Shown: positions 1-38,085, counted from the stretch's first letter. The stretch: DNA of 64,000 bases from an uncultured Pseudomonadales bacterium (GCA_964414895.1 CAYPXO010000001.1:26999-90998), one strand, 5' to 3'. Made by a program: numbers and translations. Notes: generated by a model not told the origin, from the sequence alone.

Positions 1-118
1 GCAATCCTCTTTTTCAGCTTTGCCGTCGCCAGAGGCTTAGACCGCAGTTTTGAAAACAAAGATCGCATGTTGTGCAACTCAGCCAAAGTAAGCGGGAACG
101 AAGAATGGCTTAAAAAAT

Positions 119-1051
119 GTGAGTGTTTTTATAACGGCGCACCGATTAGGTGCATTCAAAACTATGACCGAGAATAAACAACCAGACAACCAAAGCCTAG
201 TGATCGCCCAGCCAGCCCAGCAGCTAGATCAATTCGGCGACAGAAAAAAGAGCATGCGCAAGCTGGTGAAGACCCAAATGAAAGAAGGGATTGACTACGG
301 CGTCATCCCAGGAACAAACAAAAAAACCCTCCTGCAGCCAGGAGCAGAAAAGCTGGCAAACCTATACACCTTAATTCCCACCTTTGAATTGACTAAGGAG
401 ATCGAAGACTGGAAAAAGGGCTTTTTTTACTACCGCTACCTTTGCAAGCTCTCCTACAATGTCCCGCTGACCAAAGAGGGCGGGAACGGCAACCTTGAAG
501 TCTACGATGCCAAAACAGTCCCCGCAGGGGAAGCAGAGCGCAGCTGCAATTCCAGGGAGAAAAAATACCTCTACATCAATGTGCCAGAACGCTTCGCCAC
601 CGCAGACCAGAAGGCAAATGCAATCTCGCAATTCACTAGGAAAGAAAAAGGCTACACCAACATATACCTGCGGATTAAAAAGACTCCAGAGGAAAGCGCC
701 GATGACGCCAACACCATTCAATCGATGGCACAGAAGCGGGCGCTAGTGGCTGCAGTGAGAACGGCAACAATGGCAAGCGACATCTTCCTAGAGGAAGTCT
801 CAGACGCCGATCCAGCTCCAACAACCAAAGAGGAAGACCTAGTCAGAGTCAACCAGATTAAAAAACTCCATGCGGTAGCCAGACCTAGAGGATTCGATAA
901 CGGCAAGCTCCACGAAACAATTGAGGCACTTTATCAGAAAGACTCAATCACCAAACTGACTGGGCAGCAAATCTACGAACTGACAGAAAAGCTCATGGAA
1001 TACGAGATTGTTGGCAACGGCGATCCGCCAGAGAGGAGGGTAACAGCATGA
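119..1051 (+). CDS. hypothetical phage early protein (possibly recombination- or replication-associated)
   Basis: 310-aa ORF that opens the co-directional phage gene string. Its stop overlaps the start of the next gene (ATGA). No motif I can assign with confidence. Confidence 0.5.
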   Translation: MSVFITAHRLGAFKTMTENKQPDNQSLVIAQPAQQLDQFGDRKKSMRKLVKTQMKEGIDYGVIPGTNKKTLLQPGAEKLANLYTLIPTFELTKEIEDWKKGFFYYRYLCKLSYNVPLTKEGGNGNLEVYDAKTVPAGEAERSCNSREKKYLYINVPERFATADQKANAISQFTRKEKGYTNIYLRIKKTPEESADDANTIQSMAQKRALVAAVRTATMASDIFLEEVSDADPAPTTKEEDLVRVNQIKKLHAVARPRGFDNGKLHETIEALYQKDSITKLTGQQIYELTEKLMEYEIVGNGDPPERRVTA

Positions 1052-1878
1052 CGCAAACCAGATTTAAAATCATCGACGAATCTCAAGACCGAAAGTATTT
1101 TGCAATCGTCCCAAACTACATTATCAACCACTCCACCCTGAAAGAGCGGGGATTTTACCTGACCTTGAAAAGAATCGCTGGCGAGGAAGGGCGGGTTTAT
1201 TACTCGATGAGAGAACTGGCAAAGCAATGCGGAGTCAGCAAAGACACAGTAAACAGGCTTCTAAAATCGCTTCTGAAAAGAGGGTGGATCAGAGAAGCAG
1301 GCACAATTCCAGCCAAGACCAAACCCAGGATGACCTACGCAATCGTTGATTTATGGGACAAAAACAACGAATTCTATAAAAACAAAAAGATTGTCTCAAA
1401 ACAAGGACAATCTCCGATGAAAAAAAAGATTGTCGCAAACCAGGGACAAAGATCGGCGCAAACCAGGGACACAAAAGAAGAACCAGGTAAAGAAGAACTT
1501 AATAATACAGTTGAGGCTAAAGCCTCCGTTAATAGAAAAAATGTGGATAACTCTGGGGATAAACGCACTCCCACCCCAATAGGAGAAATCCTTAAAAGGC
1601 TAGAACGCAAACCCGACGCATTCCAAAAAAGCAGGATTAAATACCAATGGCAAGACGAGGCAATAAGAATGTGGCATGAAATCGGGCTAAGCAAATCTCC
1701 GTCAAGTAGTTTTTTCAAGCTGTTTAAACTCGCCCACCGAAAGGGTGAACAAGGCAAACTCTCAATTTGTCTGAGCTACTGCAAGGATGCAGAAGGAATC
1801 AGAGACATGGAGAAGTTATTTTACTGGCGCTTTGCCAACGAGCCAGGGAAGGCTGGCGACAGAAAGCATGACCTATGA
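1048..1878 (+). CDS. HTH-domain replication initiator / replisome organizer-like protein
   Basis: N-terminal winged-HTH-like segment (RELAKQCGVSKDTVNRLLKSLLKRGWI) typical of phage replication-initiator N-domains. The gene contains internal iteron-like palindromic repeats, as lambda O does. Confidence 0.5.
   Translation: MTQTRFKIIDESQDRKYFAIVPNYIINHSTLKERGFYLTLKRIAGEEGRVYYSMRELAKQCGVSKDTVNRLLKSLLKRGWIREAGTIPAKTKPRMTYAIVDLWDKNNEFYKNKKIVSKQGQSPMKKKIVANQGQRSAQTRDTKEEPGKEELNNTVEAKASVNRKNVDNSGDKRTPTPIGEILKRLERKPDAFQKSRIKYQWQDEAIRMWHEIGLSKSPSSSFFKLFKLAHRKGEQGKLSICLSYCKDAEGIRDMEKLFYWRFANEPGKAGDRKHDL
1384..1474 (+). repeat. iteron-like direct repeats of the palindrome TTGTC-N10-GACAA (two full copies and one partial) inside the replication gene; putative origin or operator
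   Basis: AAAAAGATTGTCTCAAAACAAGGACAA at 1384-1410 and AAAAAGATTGTCGCAAACCAGGGACAA at 1423-1449, plus a partial GCGCAAACCAGGGACACA. These encode the repeated peptide KKIVSKQGQ / KKIVANQGQ. Confidence 0.5.
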
Positions 1879-2600
1879 GAAAAAGAACGATCCTAATTTT
1901 ATTAACAGCAGCCCTGGCGATAGCGGGAATCACCGCCAAAATAACCTATGAAAAAAACCGCACACCAGCAATACAGAAGGGTGATGAGGAGACTCAGCAG
2001 CAAGCTGAACCGACCCCTACCCCTGAACCCGATCCACGCATTGAGATCGTGGCTGAGCGACTGGCTGAAGAAGGCAGCCCGCTCACTGACAAAGCTGGCG
2101 TCTTTGTTAACTGTGGGAGCGATAACGGCATCGATCCGTATCTGCTGGTTGGCATCACAAGCATTGAAAGCAGCTTCGGAAAACAGTCGTGCGGAGGGAA
2201 TGCCTGGGGCTGGGCAAACTGCAGAATTCAACATTCCTCGCTTGAAGCTGCGTGCCAGTCCGTCGCCGAAGGAATTGCAGAAAAACCTTATTACAGTCGA
2301 TACCGCCAAACAGGTCGAGTCGAGGATTTGGGAAGTGTGTATTGCCCCTCAAATTCAGGCTGCGACACGGCAAACTGGGTGGCAAAAGTTAAAGAGGTGG
2401 TTGCCGATCTTCAGGATCGGGAATTTGAAAAAGCAATGTTAGACCTAACCAAATACCTCCCAGGCGATAAGAGCAAAGAGGAAATGCAAAAGAACCTAGA
2501 GGAGCTGAAAAAGCGCCTGGAGAAAGCATCAGGCACAAACAAAGAGGTGGTCGAAATTCTAATCAGAGCCAACAAAAGGGCTTTAGAAAAACAAAAATGA
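1875..2600 (+). CDS. membrane-anchored lytic transglycosylase-like (SLT/GH23-like) protein
   Basis: N-terminal hydrophobic anchor (ILILLTAALAIAGI). LLVGITSIESSFGKQ resembles the catalytic E-S-x-F motif of SLT domains. C-terminal coiled coil. Confidence 0.35.
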   Translation: MRKRTILILLTAALAIAGITAKITYEKNRTPAIQKGDEETQQQAEPTPTPEPDPRIEIVAERLAEEGSPLTDKAGVFVNCGSDNGIDPYLLVGITSIESSFGKQSCGGNAWGWANCRIQHSSLEAACQSVAEGIAEKPYYSRYRQTGRVEDLGSVYCPSNSGCDTANWVAKVKEVVADLQDREFEKAMLDLTKYLPGDKSKEEMQKNLEELKKRLEKASGTNKEVVEILIRANKRALEKQK

Positions 2601-3121
2601 AAACCATCGAAGAAGCAAAACAATATGTATTTGACGAGGAAAATTGGACAAGGGGCTGTCGATGCTCCGTGTGCGGTCACTATGTCAGAAAATACCGCAA
2701 GACAATTTACAATGTCAGTGCCTACGCTCTGATCCTGATTTATAAACTGACCCTGAAATTAAACCCTGACGGCGGGTGGCTACACATCACTAAAGAATTC
2801 GCAAAGCACTTCGGATTGCATGCCTCTGCTTACGATTACAGCCAGCTTGAAAGATGGGGGTTGACTGAAAGAAAGAAGCCTAATCTAGAGAAAAATAAAC
2901 CGAGCAATGGCTTTTATCGCATAACCCAACTAGGAATAGATTTTGTTGAGGGTCGAGCAAAAGTCAAAAAATACCTCTGGATGTATAACGGCAAAGTCCT
3001 AGAGTGGGAAGACGAAGAAACCACACTTAAAGAAGCCCTGGGGAAAAAATTCGACTATCAGGAATTGATGGCAGATTGTCCAGCGCCAAAGTTACCAGCG
3101 CAGCAAACTCTAATCTTATGA
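2597..3121 (+). CDS. hypothetical Zn-finger protein
   Basis: CRCSVCGHY CxxC-type motif. Start overlaps the previous gene; part of the early gene string. Confidence 0.45.
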   Translation: MKTIEEAKQYVFDEENWTRGCRCSVCGHYVRKYRKTIYNVSAYALILIYKLTLKLNPDGGWLHITKEFAKHFGLHASAYDYSQLERWGLTERKKPNLEKNKPSNGFYRITQLGIDFVEGRAKVKKYLWMYNGKVLEWEDEETTLKEALGKKFDYQELMADCPAPKLPAQQTLIL

Positions 3122-3456
3122 ACAAAACAGAAAAAATAGCATTCGACGAATTAAGAGTGGCAGGCTACGAGGTCGAGCAGCCAATCAACAAGACCCTCAG
3201 AACGAAGCGGGGGTATATTACGCTCCGCCACGACCTTTGGGGGATTTGGGATTTTTGTGCGGTCAATAAAAAAGAGATCAGATTTATACAGGTTTCGGAA
3301 AAATACATGAGCCAGAAAACGAAAGCCGACCAACTGCGAATGATTGAATTCCCTAGACCGCCACACGCCAAAAAAGAATACTGGCGTTGGGATAAAAAGA
3401 AGGGCGATTTTATCATCGAAAAAATAGGAGGGGAGGTGAAGAATCATGGCAGATAA
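3118..3456 (+). CDS. hypothetical protein
   Basis: ORF trimmed to the ATG at 3118, which overlaps the upstream stop (ATGA). Confidence 0.4.
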   Translation: MNKTEKIAFDELRVAGYEVEQPINKTLRTKRGYITLRHDLWGIWDFCAVNKKEIRFIQVSEKYMSQKTKADQLRMIEFPRPPHAKKEYWRWDKKKGDFIIEKIGGEVKNHGR

Positions 3457-3604
3457 AAAACCTAAATATCACTTTGAAGGCAAGCGCAAAAACGCCAGGG
3501 GCAAGGAAGTCTATGTGGTCATGGAATTAAAAACAAACAAGATGCTAGAGCTGGACGAAAAGGCATTTAACAAAAAAGACAAAGCAGGGGAGGTGGAAAA
3601 ATAA
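3446..3604 (+). CDS. small hypothetical protein (52 aa)
   Basis: Not in the ORF track because it is under 60 aa. Preceded by GGGAGGTGAAG SD. Basic, Lys-rich. Confidence 0.35.
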   Translation: MADKKPKYHFEGKRKNARGKEVYVVMELKTNKMLELDEKAFNKKDKAGEVEK

Positions 3605-3608
3605 GCCT

Positions 3609-3872
3609 ATGAAAACCAGAAAACAACACCTACAAGCGATGGTCGAAAGCCTGGAGCAGGACTTAATCATTGGTGAAATCAATCAGGCTTTTATTAAGGG
3701 TCTCGATCCGAGCCAGCCATATGGCATCGGGCAAAAGACTAAAGCGGAAGCCCTCGCCGTTGAAGAAATAAACGAGAGAAAGCAGCGCAAATGTCTAGAG
3801 ATTGCAAAAAAACTACTTGCCAAAGAAGAAGCAGCAAACATTGAGGAAGGAGGTGATAAACATGCTAACTGA
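3609..3872 (+). CDS. hypothetical protein
   Basis: 87-aa ORF in the early string. Confidence 0.4.
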   Translation: MKTRKQHLQAMVESLEQDLIIGEINQAFIKGLDPSQPYGIGQKTKAEALAVEEINERKQRKCLEIAKKLLAKEEAANIEEGGDKHAN

Positions 3873-4020
3873 CAAACAAACAAAAAGGCTCGAAGAACTG
3901 CGCACCAAAGCAGGGCTAGACGAGAAGGAATGGGAGGAGCTGAGGAAGCTCGACAGATTGGAGGAGGGCGCAGCCAAGAAGGAGGCAGGAGAAGACGAGG
4001 AGGACAAGAGTGCTGAGTAA
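3862..4020 (+). CDS. small charged coiled-coil protein
   Basis: ATG at 3862 is preceded by AGGAGGTGATAAAC. The longer track ORF 3802.. probably over-extends the start. Confidence 0.4.
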   Translation: MLTDKQTKRLEELRTKAGLDEKEWEELRKLDRLEEGAAKKEAGEDEEDKSAE

Positions 4021-4128
4021 TCCTCTGAATCCTGGGGGCGGGAGGGCAGCGCCCCTGGGATTGAAAGGATTAAAACACATGACCAAAAACCTATTAAAAA
4101 ATCAAAAACTGAAAGGAGGTGAGAATCC

Positions 4129-4326
4129 GTGAAGCAAGTAGTGCGATGCGTAGGATGCAGCAAAATCGTAGGGCTTTATAAGACCTACAGCGTCCAAGTG
4201 ACAGAGACTCCGATTGTAAACGGCACACGAATGCCAGAAATAAAATATAAAGGCAGGATTTGCAAAGAATGCGCCCAGGGTGCAGGTTACAAAATCGGAA
4301 TCAAACATGAACCAAAAAAAAGCTAG
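4129..4326 (+). CDS. Zn-ribbon protein (CxxC...CxxC)
   Basis: GTG start preceded by AAAGGAGGTGAGAATCC. Motifs CVGC and CKEC. Confidence 0.45.
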   Translation: MKQVVRCVGCSKIVGLYKTYSVQVTETPIVNGTRMPEIKYKGRICKECAQGAGYKIGIKHEPKKS

Positions 4327-4459
4327 GTTGCTAAAGAAGCTGGCGAGAAGTCTGGGACTACCCTACAAGGTAATTAAAAAGCGATACCAGAGCTTTAATT
4401 CCTTACAGCGTGACGAAATGGCAAAAGAGCTAAAGCGGATTCAAAAAGCAAACCTATGA
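4307..4459 (+). CDS. small basic protein (50 aa)
   Basis: Unlisted short ORF MNQKKARLLKKLARSLGL... whose stop overlaps the next start (ATGA). Confidence 0.3.
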   Translation: MNQKKARLLKKLARSLGLPYKVIKKRYQSFNSLQRDEMAKELKRIQKANL

Positions 4460-4641
4460 AAAACACAAAACTAATCGAGCCAATACTGAGAGAAGACTAT
4501 GTCTCCCCTCACTTGAAAGAAGAAGCCCGCAAGCGGGAGATCGAACCCCTCCCGCCAGAGACAGAGGGTTTAAGTTGGGGGGAACGACTGTGGCTTTTTA
4601 TAGTGCGGGTGATTACTAAATTCTTAAGGAAATATGGTTAA
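4456..4641 (+). CDS. hypothetical protein
   Basis: 61-aa ORF translationally coupled to the following methyltransferase gene. Confidence 0.4.
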   Translation: MKNTKLIEPILREDYVSPHLKEEARKREIEPLPPETEGLSWGERLWLFIVRVITKFLRKYG

Positions 4642-5890
4642 CAAAACAGACTACCCGAAAATCGCAATAAGCACCCTGAGATTTGCCGAATACAATCCTA
4701 GGCAGATCACTAGGAGCGTGATCGAATCGCTTAAAAAATCAATGAAGCGGTTCAAGTGCGTCGTGCCGATAGTAATTAACACCTACAAAGGCAGGGGAAA
4801 TGTAGTAGTTGGTGGCGAAAAAAGAGTGCGGGCAGCAACCGAGCTAGGCTGGAAGGAAATCGAATACACCACAGTCAACATTCCCCTAGAAGACGAGAAG
4901 GCGCTAAACCTGGCATTAAACAAGATCGAAGACAAGTGGGACGATGCAAAACTGGCAGCCGTGGTGACCGACCTAGCCAAAAAGGACTTTGATTTATCAG
5001 TGACAGGATTCAACGAGGTGGAAATTAGCAACCTGCTCGACACTACAATGATGCTTAACCTCGAAGAAGAACCCTGGGACACGGAAAAAGAGCTGGCAAA
5101 AATAACCGAGCCGACCTCAAAACTCGGTGAGGTTTATCAGATCGGCGATCATCGGCTTATGTGCGGGGACGCCACCAAACCAGAGGATGTGGCGAAACTG
5201 ATGGACGGTAAGAAAGCGGACATGGTCTTTACTGACCCGCCCTACAATGTCGCTCATACCAGCAAGGAAAAGAAGGGTAAATTCCATACAGAAGAAGGCA
5301 CGATCCTTGGGGATGACCAGAGCCAGGAGGACTTCCGAGCTTTTACTCAAGCGTTTTTCAAAAACTACAATGAAATCCTAAAGCCAGGCGGGATAATTTA
5401 TGTCTGCACAGGCTACAGCTCCTACCCCCTGTTTTATTACCAGATGCTCAATGCAGGGTTTGTTTTTAGCTCGACGATAGTCTGGGTCAAACCAAGCTAT
5501 GCCATCGGTTGGGGGGATTATAAAAAGCAATACGAGCAGGTGATGCGAGGCAGGAGAAGGACTGGCAAAGCCAAAGGCGAGCCGATCCTCTACGGCTGGA
5601 GACAAGGAGAGCGCCATCAATTCGAAGGTGACAGAACCGAAAGCGATGTCTGGGAATTCCCCAGGAAGGCAATTACCGACATGGTTCACCCGACGGAAAA
5701 GCCAGAGTGGTTAATTATGAAAGCGATCAAAGGCGGATGCAGAGTCGGACAGCTAGTCGTCGATTTATTCGGCGGATCGGGAAGCACGCTGATGGCAGCA
5801 CACAAACTAAGCAGAGTCAGTTATTTAATGGAGCTAGACCCCAAGTTCTGTGATTTGATCAGAAAGAGGGCGGAAAGGTTAAAAATCTAG
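4634..5890 (+). CDS. ParB-like nuclease N-terminal domain fused to a DNA methyltransferase (DPPY motif; N6-adenine or N4-cytosine)
   Basis: N-terminus matches the ParB-N fold (GGEKRVRAATELGW). MTase motif IV is VFTDPPYN and the FGGSGST motif is present. Confidence 0.8.
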   Translation: MVNKTDYPKIAISTLRFAEYNPRQITRSVIESLKKSMKRFKCVVPIVINTYKGRGNVVVGGEKRVRAATELGWKEIEYTTVNIPLEDEKALNLALNKIEDKWDDAKLAAVVTDLAKKDFDLSVTGFNEVEISNLLDTTMMLNLEEEPWDTEKELAKITEPTSKLGEVYQIGDHRLMCGDATKPEDVAKLMDGKKADMVFTDPPYNVAHTSKEKKGKFHTEEGTILGDDQSQEDFRAFTQAFFKNYNEILKPGGIIYVCTGYSSYPLFYYQMLNAGFVFSSTIVWVKPSYAIGWGDYKKQYEQVMRGRRRTGKAKGEPILYGWRQGERHQFEGDRTESDVWEFPRKAITDMVHPTEKPEWLIMKAIKGGCRVGQLVVDLFGGSGSTLMAAHKLSRVSYLMELDPKFCDLIRKRAERLKI

Positions 5891-5970
5891 CCTTGTCGAC
5901 GCCACCAGATCGATTCTGTGGGGCGTTTGACAGGCGGGTGGGACATAGAACCACCCAAAAACAATAAAGA

Positions 5971-6132
5971 ATGTCAAAAAGTAAAAAAAGGCGCAATTTA
6001 TCAAAGCGAAGACGCAAAAAACTAAGAAAACTTAAAAGAAAACAGCAAAAAGGTATCCAAGAAGACATTAAAAAGCTGGTGATCGCCAGAATTAAAACGA
6101 TGCCAGACAATCTGAGAATTAGTATTGGCTAA
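5971..6132 (+). CDS. small highly basic protein (53 aa)
   Basis: Unlisted ORF MSKSKKRRNLSKRRRKKLRKLKRKQQKG...; possibly DNA-binding. Confidence 0.3.
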   Translation: MSKSKKRRNLSKRRRKKLRKLKRKQQKGIQEDIKKLVIARIKTMPDNLRISIG

Positions 6133-6137
6133 AAACT

Positions 6138-6767
6138 ATGGCAAAAAAACAAATAAAACCAACCAAGAAAACTGTCGACAAAAGTCCACAAGTGCCTACG
6201 GAAGATAAACCTCCCAAACTGTCGACAGAGAAAATGAAGGGCGAAACCAATCGCCACTTTTTAGCATGGTTACTTTACTGCCAAGCTGGGAGTCTTAGAA
6301 AAACTTTAGCTGTGTGGGATAAAGCACTGGGCATAGAAGGAGAAGTCGATTACAGAAAGCTAGGGAAGAAACCTTCCTTAAAAACTCTTAACAGGTGGTC
6401 AATGAAATACCGCTGGGGCGAAAGGGATGAGCTGCGGTTCGAGGAGACTCTCGCAGGTTTGAAAAAAGAAACGATCCGTATTGACAAGGAGCGCAAAGAC
6501 AGAGTCGCTCAGCTTTTCAAAATTGCAATGAACAAGAAACTCAGACAACTCAATATCCCCCAGGGAGAGGCAGTGAGCGACACCCTGCTTAATTACCTGT
6601 GGAGGATGCACCGAGTCGAAATGGGGTTGCCAACAGACTACAGCAAGCATGATGTCTACACGCCGATCAGGGAAGAAGACCAACAGCCATTGACACCAGA
6701 AGAAACTGTGCTAAGCCAAAAAATTACTCAGTTAGAAAAAGAACACAATGACAAAATCAACCAGTAA
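6138..6767 (+). CDS. putative terminase small subunit
   Basis: Called from its position immediately upstream of, and overlapping, the terminase large subunit, and from its size (209 aa); no diagnostic motif. Confidence 0.4.
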   Translation: MAKKQIKPTKKTVDKSPQVPTEDKPPKLSTEKMKGETNRHFLAWLLYCQAGSLRKTLAVWDKALGIEGEVDYRKLGKKPSLKTLNRWSMKYRWGERDELRFEETLAGLKKETIRIDKERKDRVAQLFKIAMNKKLRQLNIPQGEAVSDTLLNYLWRMHRVEMGLPTDYSKHDVYTPIREEDQQPLTPEETVLSQKITQLEKEHNDKINQ

Positions 6768-8688: not shown

Positions 8689-8703
8689 AGATAATGTAAC
8701 CAA

Positions 8704-10082: not shown

Positions 10083-10104
10083 GGATAAACCAGCCAGGCA
10101 AAGG

Positions 10105-12223: not shown

Positions 12224-12228
12224 AGCAC

Positions 12229-12258
12229 TTGCATTTTTATTTTCAACTTTGTTAGAAT
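12229..12258 (+). promoter_or_regulatory. sigma70-like promoter (TTGCAT-18-TAGAAT) upstream of the portal gene
   Basis: Hexamers with 18-bp spacing; followed by the conserved 22-mer box and a hairpin. Confidence 0.5.
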
Positions 12259-12277
12259 GAATACAGTAAAGTAAACC

Positions 12278-27490: not shown

Positions 27491-27492
27491 AC

Positions 27493-28615: not shown

Positions 28616-31600
28616 ATGCCGACATTTTGGGATCAACTAAAAACAAACATACTAAGCCCTTTAGAAAAGGGAGTGTCCTCTATTGGTCAAACTTTGGGGG
28701 ATATTTTCAAGCCAGTAGGAGGGGCAGTCAGCGATCTATTCAAGCCAATCGGAACACTTAAACCAGAGCAGTCTGAATTTGCCATTAAAACAGAACAAGG
28801 CGAATACAGACCTTACACCAGCATCTATGCGGAATCAGCAGCACAAATGATAGGTCTTGGTGCAAGGGAAACTGATTTTTGGGAAAGACTCCCCCACGCA
28901 ACACTGGGGGCGGTCAAAGGATTTGGGGTGGGAGTAGCCAAAGCCCTCACCCTCGGCTGGTGGCAGCCAGAGGTTAAATATACCCACGACGCAGAAAAGA
29001 TGGCAGGCGAGCTGACCGAAATCGAGGGAGAGATTATGGGAACTATCGGGACATTCCTGATCGGCGGGGAGATCGTTCAGGCAGTGGGCAGAGGCATTCC
29101 CGCCGTCGCAAAATTCGCTCAGATCGCCCCCAAAACCTACCAGCTATTAACTAGCGGAGTCACCTTCGCAGGATTAGGGCAAGCGCACCACGACGCTACC
29201 CTGCTTGATGCACAAGGCAGAGCAAAAACATTCGTGGCAGACTTCGCCCTGGGCGGAGCATACTCGCTGGCGGGCATGAACCCAAACTACTTCAAAGGGA
29301 CAGGCATTATCGCCCCAGCAGCCTATGTCACTTCACTAATTAAGGGTGACACACCAGAAGACGCATTGAAAACAACGGCAGCCGTGATCGGACTGCATTC
29401 AATCAACTTCGCTCTAGCAAAAGCCTTCCCATCAAAAGCCGAGCAGCTGAGAAGAAACATGGACAAAGCAGCAACTGAGCAACTAGGAGTGACCAGAGCG
29501 CAAGCCAGAGAATACCTGGGAGTGACTGAAAAAATGTCGCCAGCAGAAATCAAGAAAGCCTGGCACAAAAAAGTGATCGAAATAACAAAGAGCTTCCCAG
29601 CCTATGTGGAGATGACACCCCAGCAAAATGCTAAATACACGGCAGACTACAACACCGCCAACCGAGCTTATGAGTTTTTAGCAAAGGTGCAAAACCCGAC
29701 AGGCTATACAGGCAAAACCTTCCGAAAAGAATTTGAGGACTTATTCTACGAACTCTGGGTAAAAGTCCCAGACAAGCGGGCATTGGTGGTCAGCGCCGTC
29801 AGAAACATGCCTGCAGGATTATCGATCCGATCCACCCTAACCCCAGAGCAAAGAGCGCAGATTATAGAAAAATTGGGAGGAGAAGAAGTCAAGACCAAAT
29901 TCGGATTGACGGCAGGCAAACTGACAAACCAGGACTTAATTACATTGGCAAAAGAAAAGAAAATCGAGGTGACACCGAGCAAAATAACACCAGAAAAAGC
30001 GATCACGAAAGCACCAGAGCCAAAAGTAGAACGCAAAGAAATCTGGTCACTCCCTGGCGACTTAATGCCAGCCAGAGGCAAGCCCACCTGGAAGCATAGC
30101 AAAATGCTCTGGAACACCATGCGCAATCAATACGGCATGACCAACACCTGGAGCAAAGACATCACTGTAAACAAAGGGGCGGTTTCCTGGATTATCGACA
30201 CCCTCGAAAACGGACTGGCAAGCAAAAAGGATTTAATGACCGAAGCCAGAAAAACCAAAGGTATCCGCATGGACAGCAGGCAATACAAAAAGCTCTACGC
30301 CATGTTTAAGTCCAGAGATTATGACATCGAAGGCTACAAGAAAGTGATGTCGGTTTTGAAAGGAATTAAACCAGCGATAATTGAAAAAACCATTGAGCCT
30401 GCAAAATCAGCACCAAAAGCCCCGCCAATCAAACTAAAAACAGCTGAGGAGTTGATAAAAGAGGATAGATTAAGACCCCAAACTTCAGGATTCGGGCAAG
30501 GAAAATTCTGGCAATACAGAGCTGAGGACGGCATTTATACAGTAGCCCCAAATAAAGAGGAAGCGATAAAAAGAGCCAACGAAGCCCTGGCAGCAAAACC
30601 AAGCAAACCAGCAACCAAGCCCATATCGAAACCAGAGCCAGAGGTGCAGCCAACCGAAGGCTTCCAATTTGATGCTGACTCAACCGCCAAAGCAGGAAAA
30701 GTCACAGTCAAAGACCCTGGTATTTTTGAGAAAGGCACGCTATTCAGACAGAAAGGGAAAGATGCGGGAGTATCCTACTTGATGGGCAAGAACACCCAAA
30801 CAGGCAATACAGAAGTCCAGACAATTTACTTCGACAAAAAGCTATTCACTGAGGGGGAGGCAGCCAAGTGGTGGACGAAAAACGGCGATAAATTCACCAA
30901 ACCTTGGAGCATTAAAGAGGAAAAACTGCCAGCAAAGCCAGAACCGAAACCAGCAGCCAAGCCAAAAGAAACACTGGCAGGGCGCTTTTATCACGGCACA
31001 TCAAGAGAAGCAGCCCAAGCGATCCAAAAAGAAGGCTTTGTCATTGAGAGCTTCGAAGAAGGCAGAGGATTAGGCAATGCAATCTACCTCAGCCCGAAAC
31101 CAGAATACGCCAGAAACTACGCCATCAAAGGCGGGATCAGCAAAGAAGGCGAGATCATGGGAGTGGTGTTGGAGACAAAAGTAAAAGTCGACAATGTCCT
31201 CCGCTTAAAAGACGCAGCAGCCAGGAGAAAACTCGCTGACCTTGCCATGAAAGAAACAGGCTTGCCAGAAGACGAGGCATTGACAAAATATGTTCAAGAC
31301 CAGGGCTACGATGCCATTCTCACCCAGGAGGATATTATCGGCACGGCGACTCCATCGCTGGCAATTTTTGATCCCAGTAAAATCAAAGTGGTAGGGATCG
31401 CCGAACCAGTAATGGCAGGCGAAAAACCGACTCCATTGCCAAAAAGAGATGGCAAATTCACGGCGCAGGAAAAGAAGGCAGCCAAAGCCGAGGAGATCAG
31501 ACTTAAATACCGACCAGAAGAAAAAGAGTTGTTAGAAGCAGAGCGAGTCCCCAGCGTCGGCGAGATTATGAAAAGCAAGAAATTCCAGGATCGTATAAAA

Positions 31601-34339
31601 GGCAAGGTCAAGGCGTCGAGCCAGATGAGATTGGATGAGGCAAAGCCTGCACCTCCAGGAAGCCCGCCAAGACCGCCAAAAGAAGTGCCTATCGCTCAAG
31701 CCCCTCCTCCACCAGAAGGAAGCGGACTGGAGGCAATCGACAAAATGGTCGGCAAAGTCGGCGCACCGCAAAAAATAGGAGAATTCCTCAAAGGACTAAC
31801 GCCTAAATTCAGACGCAATTTTACCGACAGATTTGCCTTAATGAAAGACTTCGAGGAAAAAGTGAGCAAGCTACAAGGGCAGCCAATCGACATCAACTCC
31901 AGTCCCTATGTGGCAGCCAGACTGTATGCGGGCAGATTCGGGACGATAGAGGCAGCCTTCCGAGATTTGCAAAAGATCGTCACACCAGTGAGGAAACATC
32001 GACCAGACTTCACCCGCTATGTGTTGGCACAGCGTGCCATCGAAAGAGCGGATCGGGGCTTTGATAACCCTGCAGGAGTGACCAAAGAGCAGGCAGAGCT
32101 GGCACTCACCGAGCTGAAAGCCAAAGTTGGTGACAAGGTTTATAAGCAATTCGAGCAAGGAGGGCAAGCGATCCAAAACTGGTCGATCAGACAAATCCTA
32201 GAACCAATGCGAGACACAGGGTTGATCAGCAAAAAGGCATTCAACGCCATAGTTGAAAAGAATAAAAACTGGATGCCGTTCCATGTCCTCGACTACCTCC
32301 CCGATACCAAACAAGCAGACCAGATGCAATCGGGCAGCGAAACCTTCTCGGTCAGCAAACAGGGCGTGATTAAAGGATTAAAAGGCACGGAGAAAATCAT
32401 CCGTGACCCCTTCGAATCAATAGTCGATAACCTAAGCAAAGCTATCAGCCTAACCAAGAGAAATGAGGTGGCACGCAAGCTCATTGACCTAAGAAAAACC
32501 CACCCAGAAGCAAAAGAGTCTATAAAATACCTGCACAAAAACGCCAAAGCCCCCAAAGATTGGGACACCATCAGCGCATTTATTAACGGCAAGGTAACCC
32601 GCTGGGCTGTGCCAAAAGGGTTGAGTGACGCCATGCACTCCATGAGTCCAGTCGAAGCGGGACTCTTGGGTAAACTGGCGAAGACATCAACCAAAGCATT
32701 CAAAGCAGGAGTGACGACTTTTTACATTCCCTTCACCCTAACCAATGCCATCAGGGACTACCAGACAGCAACAGTCGTCAACAAATGGGGATTCAACCCA
32801 GTGACCTGGCTATCGGGATTCAAAGACAGCATTAAAGGAGCATTCAGGTGGGATTCAAAAGCCTACGACGAATTCCTGCGCAACGAGGGAGGCTACGGAG
32901 GCTACATCGGCAGCACCAGACAGCTCTCGATAGCAGCCAAAGAGTTATTTACACCGAGCTGGTGGACAAAAACAAAAGCGGTCATCAACCCTCTTAATTT
33001 GATCAGCAACTTCGCCGAGGCAATCGAACTGTCGCCAAGACTGGGAATTTATAAAAAGGGAATTAAAAAGCCAGGAGTGACCGAGTTGGAGGCAGCCTTC
33101 GAAGCCAGAAACTCGACTGTCGACTTTGCAAAATCAGGTAAAGAGATGCGGATTATCAACCAGTGGATTCCCTTTGTAAACGCCAGGTGGCAAGGAGTCC
33201 TCAGAGTCAAAGACGCCTTCAAAGAGCATCCGTTCAAATCGGCAATAAAAGCAATGGCAATGATTGTCATGCCAGGAGTGGCAACCTATTTTTACAACAT
33301 CCTCAATTACGAAGAACTGTGGGATGACATCCCCCAGTGGGCAAAAGATAACTACTTCATCGTTATTCTAGGATCGGAGCTGGATGAAGAAGGCAAAACA
33401 GTCCCAAAGGTGCTGCAGATTCCCAAAGGCGACATGGGGCAGATTTTTTTCAATCCCCTGCAATACACCTTTGAGTATGTCAGAAAGCAAGAACCGCAAA
33501 ACCTATTTAAACTAGCCTTAGAGTGGACAAGCCAAATCTCCCCGATCCCATTCACCAGGGACGGCGAATTATCGGGCAGCTCATTCCTGGCTGGGGCGCT
33601 ACCGCCAGCATTGAAAACCCTGGTCGAGGAAGTCACTAACATGAACCTATTTACAGGCTTCCCGCTCATTCCAAGAAAACTGGAGAAGGTCGCCCCAACC
33701 GAGCAATACAACGAAAGGACTCCAGGTGTGGCAGTAGGAATTGGGCGAGCCGTCGGCATCAGCCCAATGAGACTGGCTCATGTCGCAAGCGGATTGTTCG
33801 GCTCAAGCAGCAGGTATGTTTATAACCCAGCTGACCTGCTCGGTTTATCAGTAAAAAGATTTGTCAGAACTCAGGGCGGGGCAAAAGAAAGAGAAGCCTG
33901 GAAGGTGCGGGATGAAGCCGAAATCGGCTATAACACCACCCGACTATTCGTCCAGCAAGCGCTGCAAGCAGGTGATCTGCAGAAAGCCCAGAGCCTGGCA
34001 ACCGAGTGGAATAACAAAGTTCAGCAATACATTCCCCAGATTGTGCCTTACCTGATGGCAGACGATCCGAAAGAGGCGGTGAGCTTCCAGAAAAGCATCA
34101 TGTTTGACGCTGCAGACCTAAGACGACTTATGAAGCTTAATGCTCCTCCAGGAGCAGCGCTAAAGCCACCCAGTCGAGCCGTAGGCACACCTTCAAGGCA
34201 AGCTGACCCATTAGGGATATTCGGAGGGCAAAGTCCAGCAGGAGCGCCTCCAACACCGACAGGGACACAACCGACGATGGGGCAAATGTTCCCGACAGAG
34301 GGAGGAGGACAAAACGATCCACTAGGATTGTTTAAGTAA
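28616..34339 (+). CDS. giant (1907 aa) virion or ejection protein with a degenerate J-like domain and a KptA/Tpt1 (PARP-fold)-like domain; possible tape-measure or internal-core analogue
   Basis: Single uninterrupted ORF. J-like segment at about 29480-29690 (EYLGVTEKMSPAEIKKAWHKK...ANRAYEFLAK, with HPD replaced by FPA). KptA-like segment at about 30975-31215 (RFYHGTSREAAQAIQKEGF...AIYLSPKPE, compare E. coli KptA FLYHGTASRFLDEIKKQGL...YVHLSADE). Multiple Pro/Lys linkers and a Gly/Pro-rich C-terminus. Confidence 0.6.
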   Translation: MPTFWDQLKTNILSPLEKGVSSIGQTLGDIFKPVGGAVSDLFKPIGTLKPEQSEFAIKTEQGEYRPYTSIYAESAAQMIGLGARETDFWERLPHATLGAVKGFGVGVAKALTLGWWQPEVKYTHDAEKMAGELTEIEGEIMGTIGTFLIGGEIVQAVGRGIPAVAKFAQIAPKTYQLLTSGVTFAGLGQAHHDATLLDAQGRAKTFVADFALGGAYSLAGMNPNYFKGTGIIAPAAYVTSLIKGDTPEDALKTTAAVIGLHSINFALAKAFPSKAEQLRRNMDKAATEQLGVTRAQAREYLGVTEKMSPAEIKKAWHKKVIEITKSFPAYVEMTPQQNAKYTADYNTANRAYEFLAKVQNPTGYTGKTFRKEFEDLFYELWVKVPDKRALVVSAVRNMPAGLSIRSTLTPEQRAQIIEKLGGEEVKTKFGLTAGKLTNQDLITLAKEKKIEVTPSKITPEKAITKAPEPKVERKEIWSLPGDLMPARGKPTWKHSKMLWNTMRNQYGMTNTWSKDITVNKGAVSWIIDTLENGLASKKDLMTEARKTKGIRMDSRQYKKLYAMFKSRDYDIEGYKKVMSVLKGIKPAIIEKTIEPAKSAPKAPPIKLKTAEELIKEDRLRPQTSGFGQGKFWQYRAEDGIYTVAPNKEEAIKRANEALAAKPSKPATKPISKPEPEVQPTEGFQFDADSTAKAGKVTVKDPGIFEKGTLFRQKGKDAGVSYLMGKNTQTGNTEVQTIYFDKKLFTEGEAAKWWTKNGDKFTKPWSIKEEKLPAKPEPKPAAKPKETLAGRFYHGTSREAAQAIQKEGFVIESFEEGRGLGNAIYLSPKPEYARNYAIKGGISKEGEIMGVVLETKVKVDNVLRLKDAAARRKLADLAMKETGLPEDEALTKYVQDQGYDAILTQEDIIGTATPSLAIFDPSKIKVVGIAEPVMAGEKPTPLPKRDGKFTAQEKKAAKAEEIRLKYRPEEKELLEAERVPSVGEIMKSKKFQDRIKGKVKASSQMRLDEAKPAPPGSPPRPPKEVPIAQAPPPPEGSGLEAIDKMVGKVGAPQKIGEFLKGLTPKFRRNFTDRFALMKDFEEKVSKLQGQPIDINSSPYVAARLYAGRFGTIEAAFRDLQKIVTPVRKHRPDFTRYVLAQRAIERADRGFDNPAGVTKEQAELALTELKAKVGDKVYKQFEQGGQAIQNWSIRQILEPMRDTGLISKKAFNAIVEKNKNWMPFHVLDYLPDTKQADQMQSGSETFSVSKQGVIKGLKGTEKIIRDPFESIVDNLSKAISLTKRNEVARKLIDLRKTHPEAKESIKYLHKNAKAPKDWDTISAFINGKVTRWAVPKGLSDAMHSMSPVEAGLLGKLAKTSTKAFKAGVTTFYIPFTLTNAIRDYQTATVVNKWGFNPVTWLSGFKDSIKGAFRWDSKAYDEFLRNEGGYGGYIGSTRQLSIAAKELFTPSWWTKTKAVINPLNLISNFAEAIELSPRLGIYKKGIKKPGVTELEAAFEARNSTVDFAKSGKEMRIINQWIPFVNARWQGVLRVKDAFKEHPFKSAIKAMAMIVMPGVATYFYNILNYEELWDDIPQWAKDNYFIVILGSELDEEGKTVPKVLQIPKGDMGQIFFNPLQYTFEYVRKQEPQNLFKLALEWTSQISPIPFTRDGELSGSSFLAGALPPALKTLVEEVTNMNLFTGFPLIPRKLEKVAPTEQYNERTPGVAVGIGRAVGISPMRLAHVASGLFGSSSRYVYNPADLLGLSVKRFVRTQGGAKEREAWKVRDEAEIGYNTTRLFVQQALQAGDLQKAQSLATEWNNKVQQYIPQIVPYLMADDPKEAVSFQKSIMFDAADLRRLMKLNAPPGAALKPPSRAVGTPSRQADPLGIFGGQSPAGAPPTPTGTQPTMGQMFPTEGGGQNDPLGLFK

Positions 34340-34343
34340 ACCT

Positions 34344-35465
34344 ATGAAAAAGAAACTAAAACTACCAATCACATTCAGCCAAAACGATCCCAGGTGGAAG
34401 AACAGCCCACTAGGGACTAAAGGGACGATAGGAAATTACGGCTGCCTCATGGTTGACGGCACGATGGTGGTTAACTACTACGGCTTCCGAGAAACACCGC
34501 TGACCATGAACCAGAAACTGACAGAGAACGGCGGATACATGAGTGGCAACCTGTTCGTGTGGGGGGCAATCCCCAAGCTATTCCCAGGGCTGAAATACAA
34601 AGGAAAATGGTCAAATAAAAACCCACTGACTCAAGCCCAAATGAACCAGATTAGAGAGGCAATTAACAAAGGCTACCCAGTATTCCTGCAAATTGACACC
34701 ATTCCTTCAACCTCAGCTTTAGACGAACACTGGGTGCTGGCAATCGGTTACGACGGCGATGACTTTATAATTCAAGACCCCTGGGACGGAGCAGAAAAAA
34801 GAATCACCAGCTGGGGTGTGACACCGCAAAAGCTAATTTATTCTTGGTGTTGGTATGAAGGCAAACCAGCTGAAACCGATCCAGCAGAAGGCTGCTTAGT
34901 GCCAAACACCCCAGAGTGGCGAGAAAAATACGAGGACATCGTCAGCTCAGCCACGAAATGGGCAGACTCCCTCAAGATTATGGAGATCGAAGGCGACCCA
35001 TCAACGACCCCAACCGACAAAGTTAAGAGTGTCATTGCAGGGTATAAATCAAGGGAAACTGATCTTAAAAACCAGCTCAGCGATAGACAAAAAGACCTGG
35101 ATGTTGCCAACCAGGAAATTAAAAACCGCATAGAACAAGTTAGCAGACTGGAAGGCGATCTGCGAGAAAAGGATAAATACTATAAAGACCTTATCAATGC
35201 GCTAAAATCGGACATCAAAAATCTGCCAAAAATACTGGAGCAAGCGCAGGGTAGGATCGGGGTGCTGGAGGGGGAAGTCGACGAAGCCAACAAAGCCAAA
35301 GGCAGGGCGCTAAACCAGGCAGCAGAGTATAAAAGTCGCCTTGAAACCTGCGAAAAAGGACAACTGCCAGTGCCAACAAAGAACCTAATAAATACAGCAA
35401 TAGAAATTTTGATTAACCTAATCAAGGATTTTTTCAAAAAGAAGGAGGTGAAAAAAGATGGGTAG
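34344..35465 (+). CDS. endolysin: peptidase C39-like (Peptidase_C39_2) cell-wall hydrolase with C-terminal coiled coil
   Basis: FSQNDPRW...GNYGCLMV...HWVLAIGYDGDDFIIQDPWDG gives the Cys/His arrangement of C39-like phage lysins. Sits immediately upstream of the holin. Confidence 0.6.
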   Translation: MKKKLKLPITFSQNDPRWKNSPLGTKGTIGNYGCLMVDGTMVVNYYGFRETPLTMNQKLTENGGYMSGNLFVWGAIPKLFPGLKYKGKWSNKNPLTQAQMNQIREAINKGYPVFLQIDTIPSTSALDEHWVLAIGYDGDDFIIQDPWDGAEKRITSWGVTPQKLIYSWCWYEGKPAETDPAEGCLVPNTPEWREKYEDIVSSATKWADSLKIMEIEGDPSTTPTDKVKSVIAGYKSRETDLKNQLSDRQKDLDVANQEIKNRIEQVSRLEGDLREKDKYYKDLINALKSDIKNLPKILEQAQGRIGVLEGEVDEANKAKGRALNQAAEYKSRLETCEKGQLPVPTKNLINTAIEILINLIKDFFKKKEVKKDG

Positions 35466-35739
35466 TTTTAGTGATATCGGCAAAGCATATCCAGAGTGGA
35501 AGAAGGATGCCTGGCAGCTCTTGCGAACCTTTATCTCGGCATTTTTAGTCGGCGGATCGATAGTTTTAATCAATGCGGGAACGGATGCATTCATGAGCTG
35601 GGCAAACTTCCTGCACCTTTTAGTCTACCCCTTCCTGCTTGCAGGAGCGGTGGCAGGAGTGAACGCCGTTGGGAAGCTGCTGCGAAGTTTATTCGGAGCA
35701 GAAACAAAAGACAGCTTAATTGATAAGCTGCCGTTCTAA
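35458..35739 (+). CDS. holin-like protein (two TM helices)
   Basis: 93 aa with two hydrophobic helices and a charged C-terminus; overlaps the endolysin stop. Confidence 0.5.
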   Translation: MGSFSDIGKAYPEWKKDAWQLLRTFISAFLVGGSIVLINAGTDAFMSWANFLHLLVYPFLLAGAVAGVNAVGKLLRSLFGAETKDSLIDKLPF

Positions 35740-35761
35740 CAAAGGCGGTGAGCAGAAAAAT

Positions 35762-36013
35762 ATGGCAAAATCAAAAGAAGCAACTATGATGGACATTATC
35801 GAAAGAGTCGCCAAACTTGAGGAGCGGGTGGATGGTGGCTTTGGCTACATAAAAGAGGAGCTAAAGGATATAAAAGAGAACCACCTCTACACCCTTCAAA
35901 CAGATGTGAACGACCTTAAAATTAAGGTTAACACCCTCGCAGTAAAAATGGGGGTAATTGTGGCAGTTGTAACGATTGTAATCGACATCGCAATTCGCTT
36001 CCTTTTCAAATAA
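35762..36013 (+). CDS. XhlA-like lysis-associated protein (coiled coil plus C-terminal TM)
   Basis: Coiled-coil N-terminus and a C-terminal TM helix (GVIVAVVTIVIDIAI), reminiscent of the XhlA hemolysin family. Start trimmed to the ATG at 35762. Confidence 0.4.
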   Translation: MAKSKEATMMDIIERVAKLEERVDGGFGYIKEELKDIKENHLYTLQTDVNDLKIKVNTLAVKMGVIVAVVTIVIDIAIRFLFK

Positions 36014-36064
36014 AAATGATACAGTAAATCATAGTTAGGTCTGCGACCCAAAAAAGCAGAAATT

Positions 36065-36092
36065 GCCAGCAATTTTCAGGCTGGCTTTTTTG
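36065..36092 (+). terminator. intrinsic terminator GCCAGC-N9-GCTGGC followed by T6
   Basis: Perfect 6-bp stem followed by TTTTTT after the lysis cassette. Confidence 0.6.
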
Positions 36093-36279
36093 ATGCGTAG
36101 CCAGAAGACCGAAAAAGTGGACTTGACAAGTTTTTTTTACCACTCCACCAGAAGGGACTCCCCCAAATCTTCAGCGTAGACATCGCCAAAAAAAACTCAT
36201 GAGATAATTATATTAGAGCGAAACATCGGGTAAAACCATCGCTCAAGCACATTAAAAAAAGAAAGGAGGTGAAAAAAGA

Positions 36280-36459
36280 ATGAAGAATTACTATGTGAAT
36301 GTCTACGCCTTCATGCCCTACAAAAGGGAATACGACCTGAGAGTAAAAGGATCGAGGGAGGCGATTGCAATTAAAAGGGCGGTTGATCTTTTTAGGCAAT
36401 TCCCCCAGGTGAAAGGCAGACAGATCAAAGAGCTTTTTGTTAAATGCACCAGGCTCTAA
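36280..36459 (+). CDS. small moron-like hypothetical protein (59 aa)
   Basis: Unlisted ORF with AAAGGAGGTGAAAAAAGA SD, lying between the lysis genes and the integrase. Confidence 0.35.
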   Translation: MKNYYVNVYAFMPYKREYDLRVKGSREAIAIKRAVDLFRQFPQVKGRQIKELFVKCTRL

Positions 36460-36486
36460 AGGGAATGGGCGGGCAAAACACCCCGC

Positions 36487-36777
36487 CTATTCTCGTGCCA
36501 ATTCTCCATCCTTAGCGTGTTTTTTGACAAAATCCATCAGAAGTTCGAACCCCTCGGCGTGGTTAGTTTGAATCTTTTTCAAAATCTCCCTGCACTGGCG
36601 GACGGCTTTATCAGAACACTTATACCGCTCAGAATTCTCGCCGAACTTCTTACGATGTTTTTCTTTGATTTCGTCCAGAAAATTAAAAAAATCCTCCACC
36701 GACTCCTCAAAGGCATCAGAGAGGTTATAAGCACGAATGAGAATCTCCTGCGCTTTTTTAGTGTGATCTTTAGCCAT
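36487..36777 (-). CDS. hypothetical lysogeny-region protein
   Basis: 96-aa ORF co-oriented with the integrase. Confidence 0.45.
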   Translation of the reverse strand: MAKDHTKKAQEILIRAYNLSDAFEESVEDFFNFLDEIKEKHRKKFGENSERYKCSDKAVRQCREILKKIQTNHAEGFELLMDFVKKHAKDGELARE

Positions 36778-36836
36778 AACAAAAAGGGCGGGCAGAAGCT
36801 ATTATACTACAAAAAAGGGGGCGGGTTACGCATTCA

Positions 36837-37925
36837 CTACGCCTTTTTTAGTGTCAGCTCAAAAGCCAACCCACCTGACTTCTCCACCAGTTTATACTCA
36901 AAACGAGCATCGTCCTGCAGCTGAAAGGATTTGATCTCCTCCTTAACATTTTTCATTATCATTTTAGGGTCTTGAGACTTGCGAATTAAGGGGTGCTTGA
37001 GCATGGCGTCCCGAAGATCGTCCGTGACCATGTGGGTGTAGATCATGGTAGTATCAACCTTGCGGTGACCGACGATCCGCTGGACTTTGGAAATCGCCAC
37101 ATCCACCCGCAGAAGCTCGGTTATAAACGAGTGACGGAAGGCATGGGCATGGAAACGGCGGTCAACATGAAGACCAGCCCGCCTAGCACGCTCCCGCAGC
37201 GCTTTATTAACCATCGTCCCGCCGACCCGACGATTGGGACTGGTGCGCCGAAAGTGCATAGAAACGAATAAGGGCGCTGTTGGTGGAGCGCCCTTGCGGT
37301 GAGCATTGACCCAAGATTTAAGTTTAATAACCATGTCGGGAGGGATCGGCACGATCCGCTGCTCGTCGGTTTTAGTCTCCCGAATAATAAACTCCTCCGA
37401 TCCAAAATTCAGGTCGCCAAGATTGAGATTAAGCACCTCCCCGACACGGCAGCCAGTCTTAGCCAGAAACTCAAAGAAGATAGACCACATCTCATCGACC
37501 TCGACATACTTAGGATACAAGTGAGGTACATCAGGGCAGTTGTTGGTGGGCTTGCGGGCAGGAGGATTGATGACCTTTTCAATCTCCTCCAGCGAAAGAG
37601 TCTGGTATAAAACGATTTTTTTCTTAGGACGCAAGGCGTTCAGGCGGGAGGTAATATCCTTAAGAGGCAAATGCTGCTCGGCAATCAGGAAGCGAATAAA
37701 GGAATTAAGGGTAGTGATGAGGACATTGATGTAGTTGGGGGAAAGGTTGGATTTTTTATAGGAGCGGATCTGGTCACGGATATTTTCAAAAGAAAAATCA
37801 CCCTCACCCAAGTCCGAGAAGAACTTCGAAAGCCACTGGCGTCTAACTTTAACAGTCTGCTCGGACAGGTCTCGATCATATTTAATGAACTCGATGTAAT
37901 CCTGCTGGAGATTCGAGTATTTCAT
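36837..37925 (-). CDS. int: tyrosine-type site-specific integrase
   Basis: Catalytic region HAHAFRHSFITEL...VGHRKVDTTMIYTHM (R..H-x-x-R..Y). Last phage gene, lying next to the disrupted host comM. Confidence 0.85.
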   Translation of the reverse strand: MKYSNLQQDYIEFIKYDRDLSEQTVKVRRQWLSKFFSDLGEGDFSFENIRDQIRSYKKSNLSPNYINVLITTLNSFIRFLIAEQHLPLKDITSRLNALRPKKKIVLYQTLSLEEIEKVINPPARKPTNNCPDVPHLYPKYVEVDEMWSIFFEFLAKTGCRVGEVLNLNLGDLNFGSEEFIIRETKTDEQRIVPIPPDMVIKLKSWVNAHRKGAPPTAPLFVSMHFRRTSPNRRVGGTMVNKALRERARRAGLHVDRRFHAHAFRHSFITELLRVDVAISKVQRIVGHRKVDTTMIYTHMVTDDLRDAMLKHPLIRKSQDPKMIMKNVKEEIKSFQLQDDARFEYKLVEKSGGLAFELTLKKA

Positions 37926-38029
37926 AGCCCTTTACGGGCAGGATTTAGATTGATTATATCAGAAAAACAACTACCACTTGACATCGTTGACTTTTTGTGA
38001 TTGACTGAAAATAGCAACATTTACATTCA

Positions 38030-38085
38030 GGAGTTAGCTGCCCCTTGAAGGGGAAGATTAGAAGCAAGAAACCTTCGAGAACTCC
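38030..38085. other. putative prophage-host attachment junction inside comM
   Basis: Both the GC-content shift and the divergence of the comM reading frame from the conserved ...LFLDELSEF continuation occur here. Confidence 0.35.

Follow-up and report, generated by a model that had tools for sequence, protein, structure and literature searches.

A tailed-phage genome integrated at the Walker B site of comM in a probable Microgenomates-group patescibacterium

The DNA analysed here is a stretch of 64,000 nucleotides, called the window below, from a contig deposited for an uncultured Pseudomonadales bacterium (GCA_964414895.1, CAYPXO010000001.1:26999-90998). Its left 38 kb carries the genes of a tailed phage, and at its right end this phage DNA runs directly into a truncated copy of comM (yifB), the gene for the hexameric branch-migration helicase of natural transformation (PMC6158740). 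The remainder of comM was recovered on a separately assembled contig at the other end of the phage. We conclude, with a probability of about 0.9, that a temperate tailed phage of 38,715 bp with its own tyrosine recombinase is integrated in the chromosomal comM gene of a bacterium of the Microgenomates group of Patescibacteria (Candidate Phyla Radiation, CPR).

The prophage ends and the rebuilt comM gene

The features that define the two ends of the element are as follows; L067 is a contig of the Logan assembly of run SRR14802572, and ORF stands for open reading frame.

1-38088, plus strand: prophage body, defined by phage gene content; it runs 617 bp further left than the window
36487-36777, minus strand (that of the integrase): 96-residue ORF, whose sole Pfam match is weak and below the cut-off
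36837-37925, minus strand: tyrosine integrase, 362 residues (PF00589, E=2.1e-29; phrog_1 integrase, E=1.6e-42)
38058-39011, minus strand: comM N-terminal fragment, an ORF of 317 residues (Pfam, alignment to full-length ComM, gene reconstitution)
38089-38098: attR core, AACTCGTCCA on the plus strand and TGGACGAGTT in the comM reading direction
L067 114-758, minus strand: ComM C-half ORF, 214 residues, with Mg_chelatase and Mg_chelatase_C domains
L067 724-733: attL core, AACTCATCCA

At the right-hand join between phage and host, the split in comM falls at the Walker B motif VLFLDE, with codon 307 on one side and codon 308 on the other. The 317-residue ORF that remains in the window matches the ChlI profile of Pfam over positions 1-121 of 121 and Mg_chelatase over only positions 1-120 of 207, and when it is aligned with full-length ComM/YifB relatives (508-514 residues) the homology stops after ...HRGVLFLDE, at E307. 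Native residues 1-307 are encoded by 38091-39011, while the last ten residues of the ORF (LSEFSKVSCF) and its stop codon are encoded by phage DNA. The motif, with D306 and E307, lies in the AAA+ domain of ComM and is invariant across all of the aligned relatives. The C-terminal half of ComM was not found anywhere in the window by tblastn (best E=3.3). The join is identical in the independent Logan assembly of SRR14802572, in which contig L001 corresponds to window 34045-41948 with 100% identity and also encodes the exact ComM fragment.

From position 1 to about 38,090 the window has 44-50% guanine plus cytosine (GC) and nearly all of its long ORFs are on the plus strand, and from about 38,100 on the GC content falls via about 42% to 31-37%. 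The phage as a whole stands at 0.475 and the 25.9-kb host flank on its right at 0.365. A first-pass annotation of the window had described an integrase abutting a comM ORF that ends at a conserved segment, with no ComM C-terminal half downstream, and the PF00589 match, the end of homology at E307 and the tblastn search bear this description out. It had put the missing part of ComM at about 180 residues, whereas 203 native residues are absent from the N-terminal fragment. The fall in GC content that it reported is real but less abrupt than described, the comM region itself having a GC content of about 0.42 and values of 0.31-0.35 being reached only after about 46 kb.

The left junction came from L067 and not from the window. 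This contig was recovered by a look-up of the window's first protein, taken from the ATG start at position 164, and its nucleotides 1351-6944 equal window 1-5594 with 100% identity. To the left of the window L067 encodes two further phage ORFs on the plus strand and then the ComM C-half ORF, the start codon of which is supplied by the phage. When residues 1-307 from the window and 308-510 from L067 are joined, they give in frame a ComM of 510 residues that is 84% identical over residues 1-509 to its closest intact relative, P0002 (514 residues), and the alignment is ungapped at the joint. P0002 is moreover the closest relative of each of the two halves. The element bounded in this way, with the core counted once, measures 38,715 bp and has 47.5% GC. 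The first-pass annotation had foreseen a prophage of at least 38 kb splitting comM, passing the window's left edge and having its other att site beyond position 1; the phage does continue on L067, for 617 bp, and the leftward extension that had been proposed as a check for the ComM C-terminal half found it there.

Read in the comM direction, attR is ...GGAGTTTTGTTTTTGGACGAGTT followed by GTCGGAGTTCTCGAAGG..., and attL is ...GGACTCTCATTTCTGGATGAGTT followed by CCCCGAGTTTCCCCGT... The core common to both, TGGA(C/T)GAGTT, is 10 bp long with one mismatch and sits within about 40 bp of imperfect att similarity, which on the window side spans approximately 38072-38115. A long direct repeat without mismatches was sought at the element's ends and not found; there is just this core, and the repeat expected earlier at 38040-38075 had been misplaced. 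If the phage sides of attL and attR are put together, the resulting attP site matches uninterrupted DNA, with 89% identity over 66 bp, in contig L150 of the Joint Genome Institute (JGI), where the left arm of a related phage (a phrog_10048 homologue, the methyltransferase and the terminase large subunit) is joined straight to an integrase 78% identical to that of the window. Judged from this arrangement, L150 is the non-integrated form of a related phage, not of the same phage, and it independently confirms both prophage boundaries. The attP site lies just upstream of the integrase gene and is an imperfect copy of comM around the Walker B codons; phage arms bearing such a degenerate comM copy are expected if attP and attB must bind the same core domains of the integrase. 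Taken together, the sites place strand exchange, as far as it can be read from sequence, inside TGGA(C/T)GAGTT, over the codons for L-D-E-F/L (comM codons 305-308).

A comM-linked integrase clade and its hosts

The catalytic residues of the window integrase are all present in the sequence (R160, H261-x-x-R264, H287 and Y296). The clade to which it belongs is small, with 11 proteins at E<1e-30 among 5.8 billion, and all of the members with readable surroundings adjoin comM. Besides the window integrase, they include the following.

L151, JGI metagenome contig Ga0209322_10000976: integrase 79% identical, comM N-half upstream
L212-L215, one population, from groundwater PRJNA292723 and JGI 3300009285: integrase 70% identical
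L216, from Logan SRR24490437: integrase 68% identical
L217, from Logan SRR31359996: integrase 71% identical; the contig begins 30 bp inside comM

At all four of these other independent sites the comM N-half ends in ...LFLDE directly upstream of the integrase, at the same codon as in the window. The P' arm that follows the comM break is alike in L212-L215, L216 and L217, with the consensus TGTCKGAGTTCTCG in L212 and L217 and TCTCTGAGTTCTCG in L216, and is divergent in L151. These contigs show an integrase clade that, to judge from its genomic surroundings, is specific for the comM Walker B site. A more distant integrase, 53% identical, is encoded on L219 (1-6577) with a comM-like sequence upstream on the opposite strand that is similar to the beginning of the C-half. 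Then come a gene for a LexA-like (S24) repressor and restriction-modification genes, which encode a cytosine methyltransferase, a SacI-like restriction enzyme and Vsr; L219 looks like a different kind of element on the same target. The 96-residue ORF beside the window integrase has counterparts of 45-67% identity at the same place in L007, L150, L151, L212 and L217, and is a candidate for an excision or lysogeny regulator.

The host of the window prophage was placed with two proteins. For RecA (59365-60420) the named best hits are only Patescibacteria, Beckwithbacteria and the Microgenomates group, at 72-80% identity, and for ComM the best genome hits are Woesebacteria, Levyibacteriota and Microgenomates; in a scan of the genome collection, which does not include the genome of the window, ComM had no match above 68% identity. 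These hits support a host within the Microgenomates group of Patescibacteria, in line with the CPR-like background suspected in the first-pass annotation. The lysogenised hosts are far apart from one another. Their ComM N-halves are 48-61% identical, and the MiaA of the window host is 41%, its AI-2E transporter 40%, identical to the counterpart in the L212 host. Host GC content ranges from 0.365 to about 0.51, while that of the phages is 0.45-0.48 whatever the host, and the GC mismatch of the window prophage is explained by this constancy of the phage family against a varying host. The phages themselves share about 75% nucleotide identity over 9-12 kb, with tail proteins 60-83% identical. Such similar phages in deeply divergent hosts suggest a broad host range or frequent host switching, which the conserved comM target would make possible. 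In the host flank of L151 by the comM junction (1300-6631) we also observed a tRNA gene and a 23S rRNA gene interrupted by a group I intron (3579-3839), with a 5S rRNA gene 1.6 kb beyond the 23S rRNA gene.

Relatives of the phage are present in IMG/VR, where 15 contigs (for example UViG_3300009285_016361 and 3300029288_007080) encode a terminase large subunit 65-74% identical to that of the window in the same gene order and represent the same phage family. They are catalogued as viral contigs only, with host flanks and integration site trimmed off, and most have a different integrase or none visible. UViG_3300009285_016361 and L213, the integrase of which adjoins a comM N-half, share one JGI sample, the former probably being a trimmed part of the latter. 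When IMG/VR was scanned with the ComM alignment, the only comM-prophage junctions obtained were those of unrelated bacteria, with none from the family of the window phage, and a scan with the C39 peptidase failed to yield the right ends of related contigs. The sole integrase match among the IMG/VR comM loci, in L045, is 24% identical and is separated from the comM match by about 1.5 kb. No close deposited phage was found, the terminase large subunit being less than 28% identical to anything in INPHARED.

Truncated N-halves make up about 6 of the 120 closest ComM homologues, and comM is intact in nearly all of 80 related reference genomes. Some other CPR comM genes are cut at codons that are near to, but different from, that of the window. 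In L002 (10001-21047; GCA_900174565.1, FWPU01001566.1) a distantly related phage, with a methyltransferase 39% identical to that of the window phage, breaks comM about 12 bp downstream of the window's break, and it is the early-gene arm that adjoins the comM N-half, in the orientation opposite to that of the window. The breaks in L149, L003 and L004-L006 lie about 30, 57 and 150 bp downstream, respectively; in L003 the comM fragment is followed by a 413-residue protein without a Pfam match, and no mobile element could be recognised there.

Breaks farther along or farther ahead in the gene were observed as well. L091 (Anaerolineaceae, CAYRHN010000002.1) carries comM fragments at 3-584, 2278-3336 and 11252-12310, cut at about residue 355: two full copies about 9 kb apart, which match the query with equal percent identity, and a partial third copy. 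These repeats suggest tandem elements inserted at a second comM site, and a break at residues 348-357 is likewise seen in L004-L006, L031, L033 and L039. In the IMG/VR contigs L044, L047 and L048, comM fragments of other bacteria that flank prophages begin at about residue 215, just before Walker A. It appears that comM is struck by different elements at no fewer than three distinct conserved positions.

Phage genes and the host flank

By PHROG and Pfam searches, phage genes occupy 1-36000 of the window on the plus strand. Those with a recognisable family or position, all of them on the plus strand, are listed below.

164-1051: early-region protein of phrog_10048, function not assigned
1048-1878: replication initiator or DnaD-like helix-turn-helix protein (phrog_186/270/428; HTH_36, DnaD_N)
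4634-5890: ParB-like domain fused to a DNA methyltransferase (phrog_498, E=9e-116)
6138-6767: terminase small subunit (phrog_6299)
6748-8310: terminase large subunit (phrog_675, E=7e-96)
10192-11181: staphylococcal-nuclease-like nuclease (PF00565, E=2e-23; phrog_20876)
12362-14233: portal protein (phrog_332/156/1216)
16931-18115: major head protein (phrog_1328, E=1.6e-34)
21122-23710: virion-associated protein, 862 residues, with a C-terminal N-acetylmuramoyl-L-alanine amidase domain (phrog_822/1493; PF01510)
25942-27273: tail fibre protein (phrog_7660/892)
28616-34339: large polyvalent protein, 1907 residues, with an LPD38 domain (PF18857; phrog_9854)
34344-35465: C39-like peptidase, lysis region (PF13529)
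35458-35739 and 35720-36013: two small membrane-bound-looking proteins, lysis region (from their translations)

The recognisable phage modules are all present and there are no obviously broken ORFs. Homologues of the first protein in the list lie beside attP in L150 and beside the comM junction in L002. The 1907-residue LPD38 protein alone takes up 15% of the phage genome and has homologues in L212, L216 and L217, with 64-83% identity across the family; its relative in L216 shows an additional weak match to ART-PolyVal. The two small proteins of the lysis region may have a holin-like role.

Several features of the host flank were recorded in passing. A divergent RNase P RNA of bacterial class A lies on the plus strand at 41936-42290 (full-length model match, 92.3 bits, E=1e-28), in a GC-richer segment with no convincing ORF that is bordered by a mechanosensitive-channel-like gene and the gene for the AI-2E transporter; at 92.3 bits it is just under the Rfam cut-off of 100 and so escaped the default scan. 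When a 517-nucleotide segment that includes it is folded as the opposite strand, the fold is far more stable than shuffled controls (z = -6.8). A direct repeat of 52 nucleotides, 96% identical, occurs at 41727-41778, where it is at the 5' end of the minus-strand mechanosensitive-channel-like gene and overlaps its start codon, and at 57058-57109, just upstream of a minus-strand gene for a 91-residue protein. It includes a GC hairpin (CCGCCAGAGGCGG) followed by the ribosome-binding-like AAGGAAGGGGGTGAA and may be a shared leader or regulatory element. A second direct repeat, of 82 nucleotides and 87% identity, is found at 47018-47099 and 49296-49377, 2.3 kb apart. The miaA gene (43328-44332) contains two copies of a low-complexity insertion with GAATTT(T/G) repeats, at 43681-43759 and 44100-44178, which encode NSKFKIQN-like stretches that are not in the Pfam IPPT core. 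A putative tRNA-Pro (GGG) was called by ARAGORN at 60480-60554, overlapping the start of an ORF at 60494-61162, whereas the Rfam scan found no tRNA in the window at the gathering score.

Alternative explanations and consequences for ComM

What the sequences show is the integration event, its two junctions, the form of attP and the repeated use of the site; several other explanations of the locus were weighed. Phage DNA of high GC content might have been wrongly joined in assembly to a low-GC host via the conserved comM Walker B site, and both the 11-point difference in GC content and the position of the join, within about 20 bp that are nearly identical across many CPR comM genes, are what such a chimera would produce. 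It would not, however, give the same right junction from two assemblers, nor a separately assembled left junction bearing exactly the complementary half of comM, in frame, with P0002 as the closest relative of both halves; the same integrase-comM junction at four other independent metagenome sites and a phage family that keeps 45-48% GC irrespective of its host also speak against it, and we hold a chimera to be very improbable. An element other than a phage comes to mind because, of all comM insertions, those studied best are the Acinetobacter islands of the Tn7-like AbaR type (PMC11441513, PMC11014353). We give next to no credence to an island of this type or an integrative conjugative element here: terminase, portal, major head, tail fibre and lysis genes are present together with a tyrosine integrase, and among the larger ORFs, which were those scanned, there was no match to a Tn7 transposition or conjugation protein. 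On gene content we regard such elements as excluded. A chance adjacency of a comM pseudogene to phage DNA was also considered and rejected.

Several points weigh against the interpretation we prefer, a temperate phage integrated by its own recombinase. The assembled contigs of this population show neither excision nor an empty site, and in the protein search the nearest intact comM had 86% identity. Neither a repressor nor an excisionase could be identified among the phage genes. The identical part of the core is short, 4 bp and 5 bp flanking the C/T mismatch, which leaves the exact cleavage positions undefined. A prophage of long residence would not usually exceed its host by 11 GC points, as this phage does, and the effect on transformation is carried over by analogy from Gammaproteobacteria to a CPR ComM. 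The lack of evidence for excision or an empty site, the mismatch inside the core and the unrecognised repressor and excisionase would fit a defective or cryptic prophage, one integrated as described but no longer able to excise or to form particles. So would the Logan contigs, which pass through both att sites unbroken and thereby suggest that the integrated form is dominant in the sample. Against this the recognisable modules are all long intact ORFs, the genome is collinear with its relatives including the non-integrated L150, the catalytic residues of the integrase are intact, and a GC content high for the host favours recent arrival over long decay. We therefore consider a cryptic prophage unlikely, while leaving it appreciably more room than a chimera.

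Integration cuts comM after E307 into an N-fragment of 317 residues, with the Lon-like domain, Walker A and Walker B, and a separate C-fragment of 214 residues; the N-fragment is without the rest of the AAA+ core and the Mg_chelatase_C domain. Sensor 1, the arginine finger and the lid would be expected among these missing parts. The split helicase would probably be inactive, and for this reason the lysogen would be poor at recombining incoming DNA, which in turn would protect the prophage from deletion by transformation ('chromosomal curing'). If the phage excised precisely, comM would be whole again. The target would also make a portable site, being among the most conserved stretches of a near-universal gene. 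That mobile elements which disrupt comM lower transformation and so escape curing was proposed earlier (PMC4774983) and has been shown for the AbaR islands (PMC11441513), and a cultured CPR bacterium, a member of the Saccharibacteria, has been shown to undergo natural transformation (PMC10633639). A wider proposal, that a single phage lineage uses the comM Walker B site as a portable landing site across order-to-class-level divergence within the CPR and that reversible splitting of comM serves as an anti-curing device or as 'active lysogeny', we put forward only tentatively.

The first-pass annotation had called comM a known integration target in Proteobacteria, and the literature agrees for the Gammaproteobacteria (PMC4774983, PMC11441513, PMC11014353). 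Integrase-bearing elements have been described in comM of Aggregatibacter actinomycetemcomitans, Mannheimia haemolytica, Francisella philomiragia, Pseudomonas syringae and Acinetobacter baumannii (Croucher et al. 2016, PMC4774983). Like the window prophage, these elements insert site-specifically into the coding sequence of comM, at an orthologous conserved position in divergent hosts, and the same benefit has been proposed for them, namely the blocking of transformation-mediated curing. The host of the window prophage belongs to a different phylum, and the likeness is one at the level of the gene. The Tn7-like AbaR islands of A. baumannii likewise disrupt comM, and experiments show a lowered transformation and a stabilised island (PMC11441513, PMC11014353). 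They differ from the window prophage in being no phages and in relying on Tn7-type transposition with a target-selector protein rather than on a tyrosine integrase with attP and attB. Prophages of the A118/phi10403S type in Listeria split another competence gene, comK, which is restored by their precise excision ('active lysogeny'). Their excision is reversible and regulated, which for the window prophage is only a possibility, and both the target gene and the host group differ; comK is mentioned in PMC4774983. There are also reports of prophages from metagenome assemblies of Patescibacteria, in Paceibacteria, Saccharibacteria, Gracilibacteria and Absconditabacteria (PMC12455944, PMC12911398). 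They resemble that of the window in being integrated tailed-phage genomes of about 40 kb in ultra-small bacteria, whereas the window host is of the Microgenomates group. Neither of these two papers mentions comM or a chelatase, and one of them is also without any mention of an integration site. Integration into comM in Gammaproteobacteria and the presence of prophages in the CPR are thus already known, and what is apparently new is the resolved att sites, the comM-specific integrase clade in the CPR and an apparently broad host range.

Very little is known of the interactions between phages and CPR bacteria, almost none of which are cultured. The locus described here is a fully resolved CPR integration event, with attL, attR, attB and attP, and its integrase clade has a defined and highly conserved target with a 10-bp core. 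This provides a reliable marker that ties an uncultivated phage family, present in IMG/VR without firm hosts, to Microgenomates hosts, and it suggests an unusually broad host range within the CPR, because related phages are found in hosts with only about 40% identity between their housekeeping proteins. The integrase together with its short attB could serve as a site-specific integration tool for Patescibacteria. In its bearing on the biology of these bacteria, the finding would extend the idea that mobile elements disable competence to avoid being cured to a phylum in which competence has only recently been shown.

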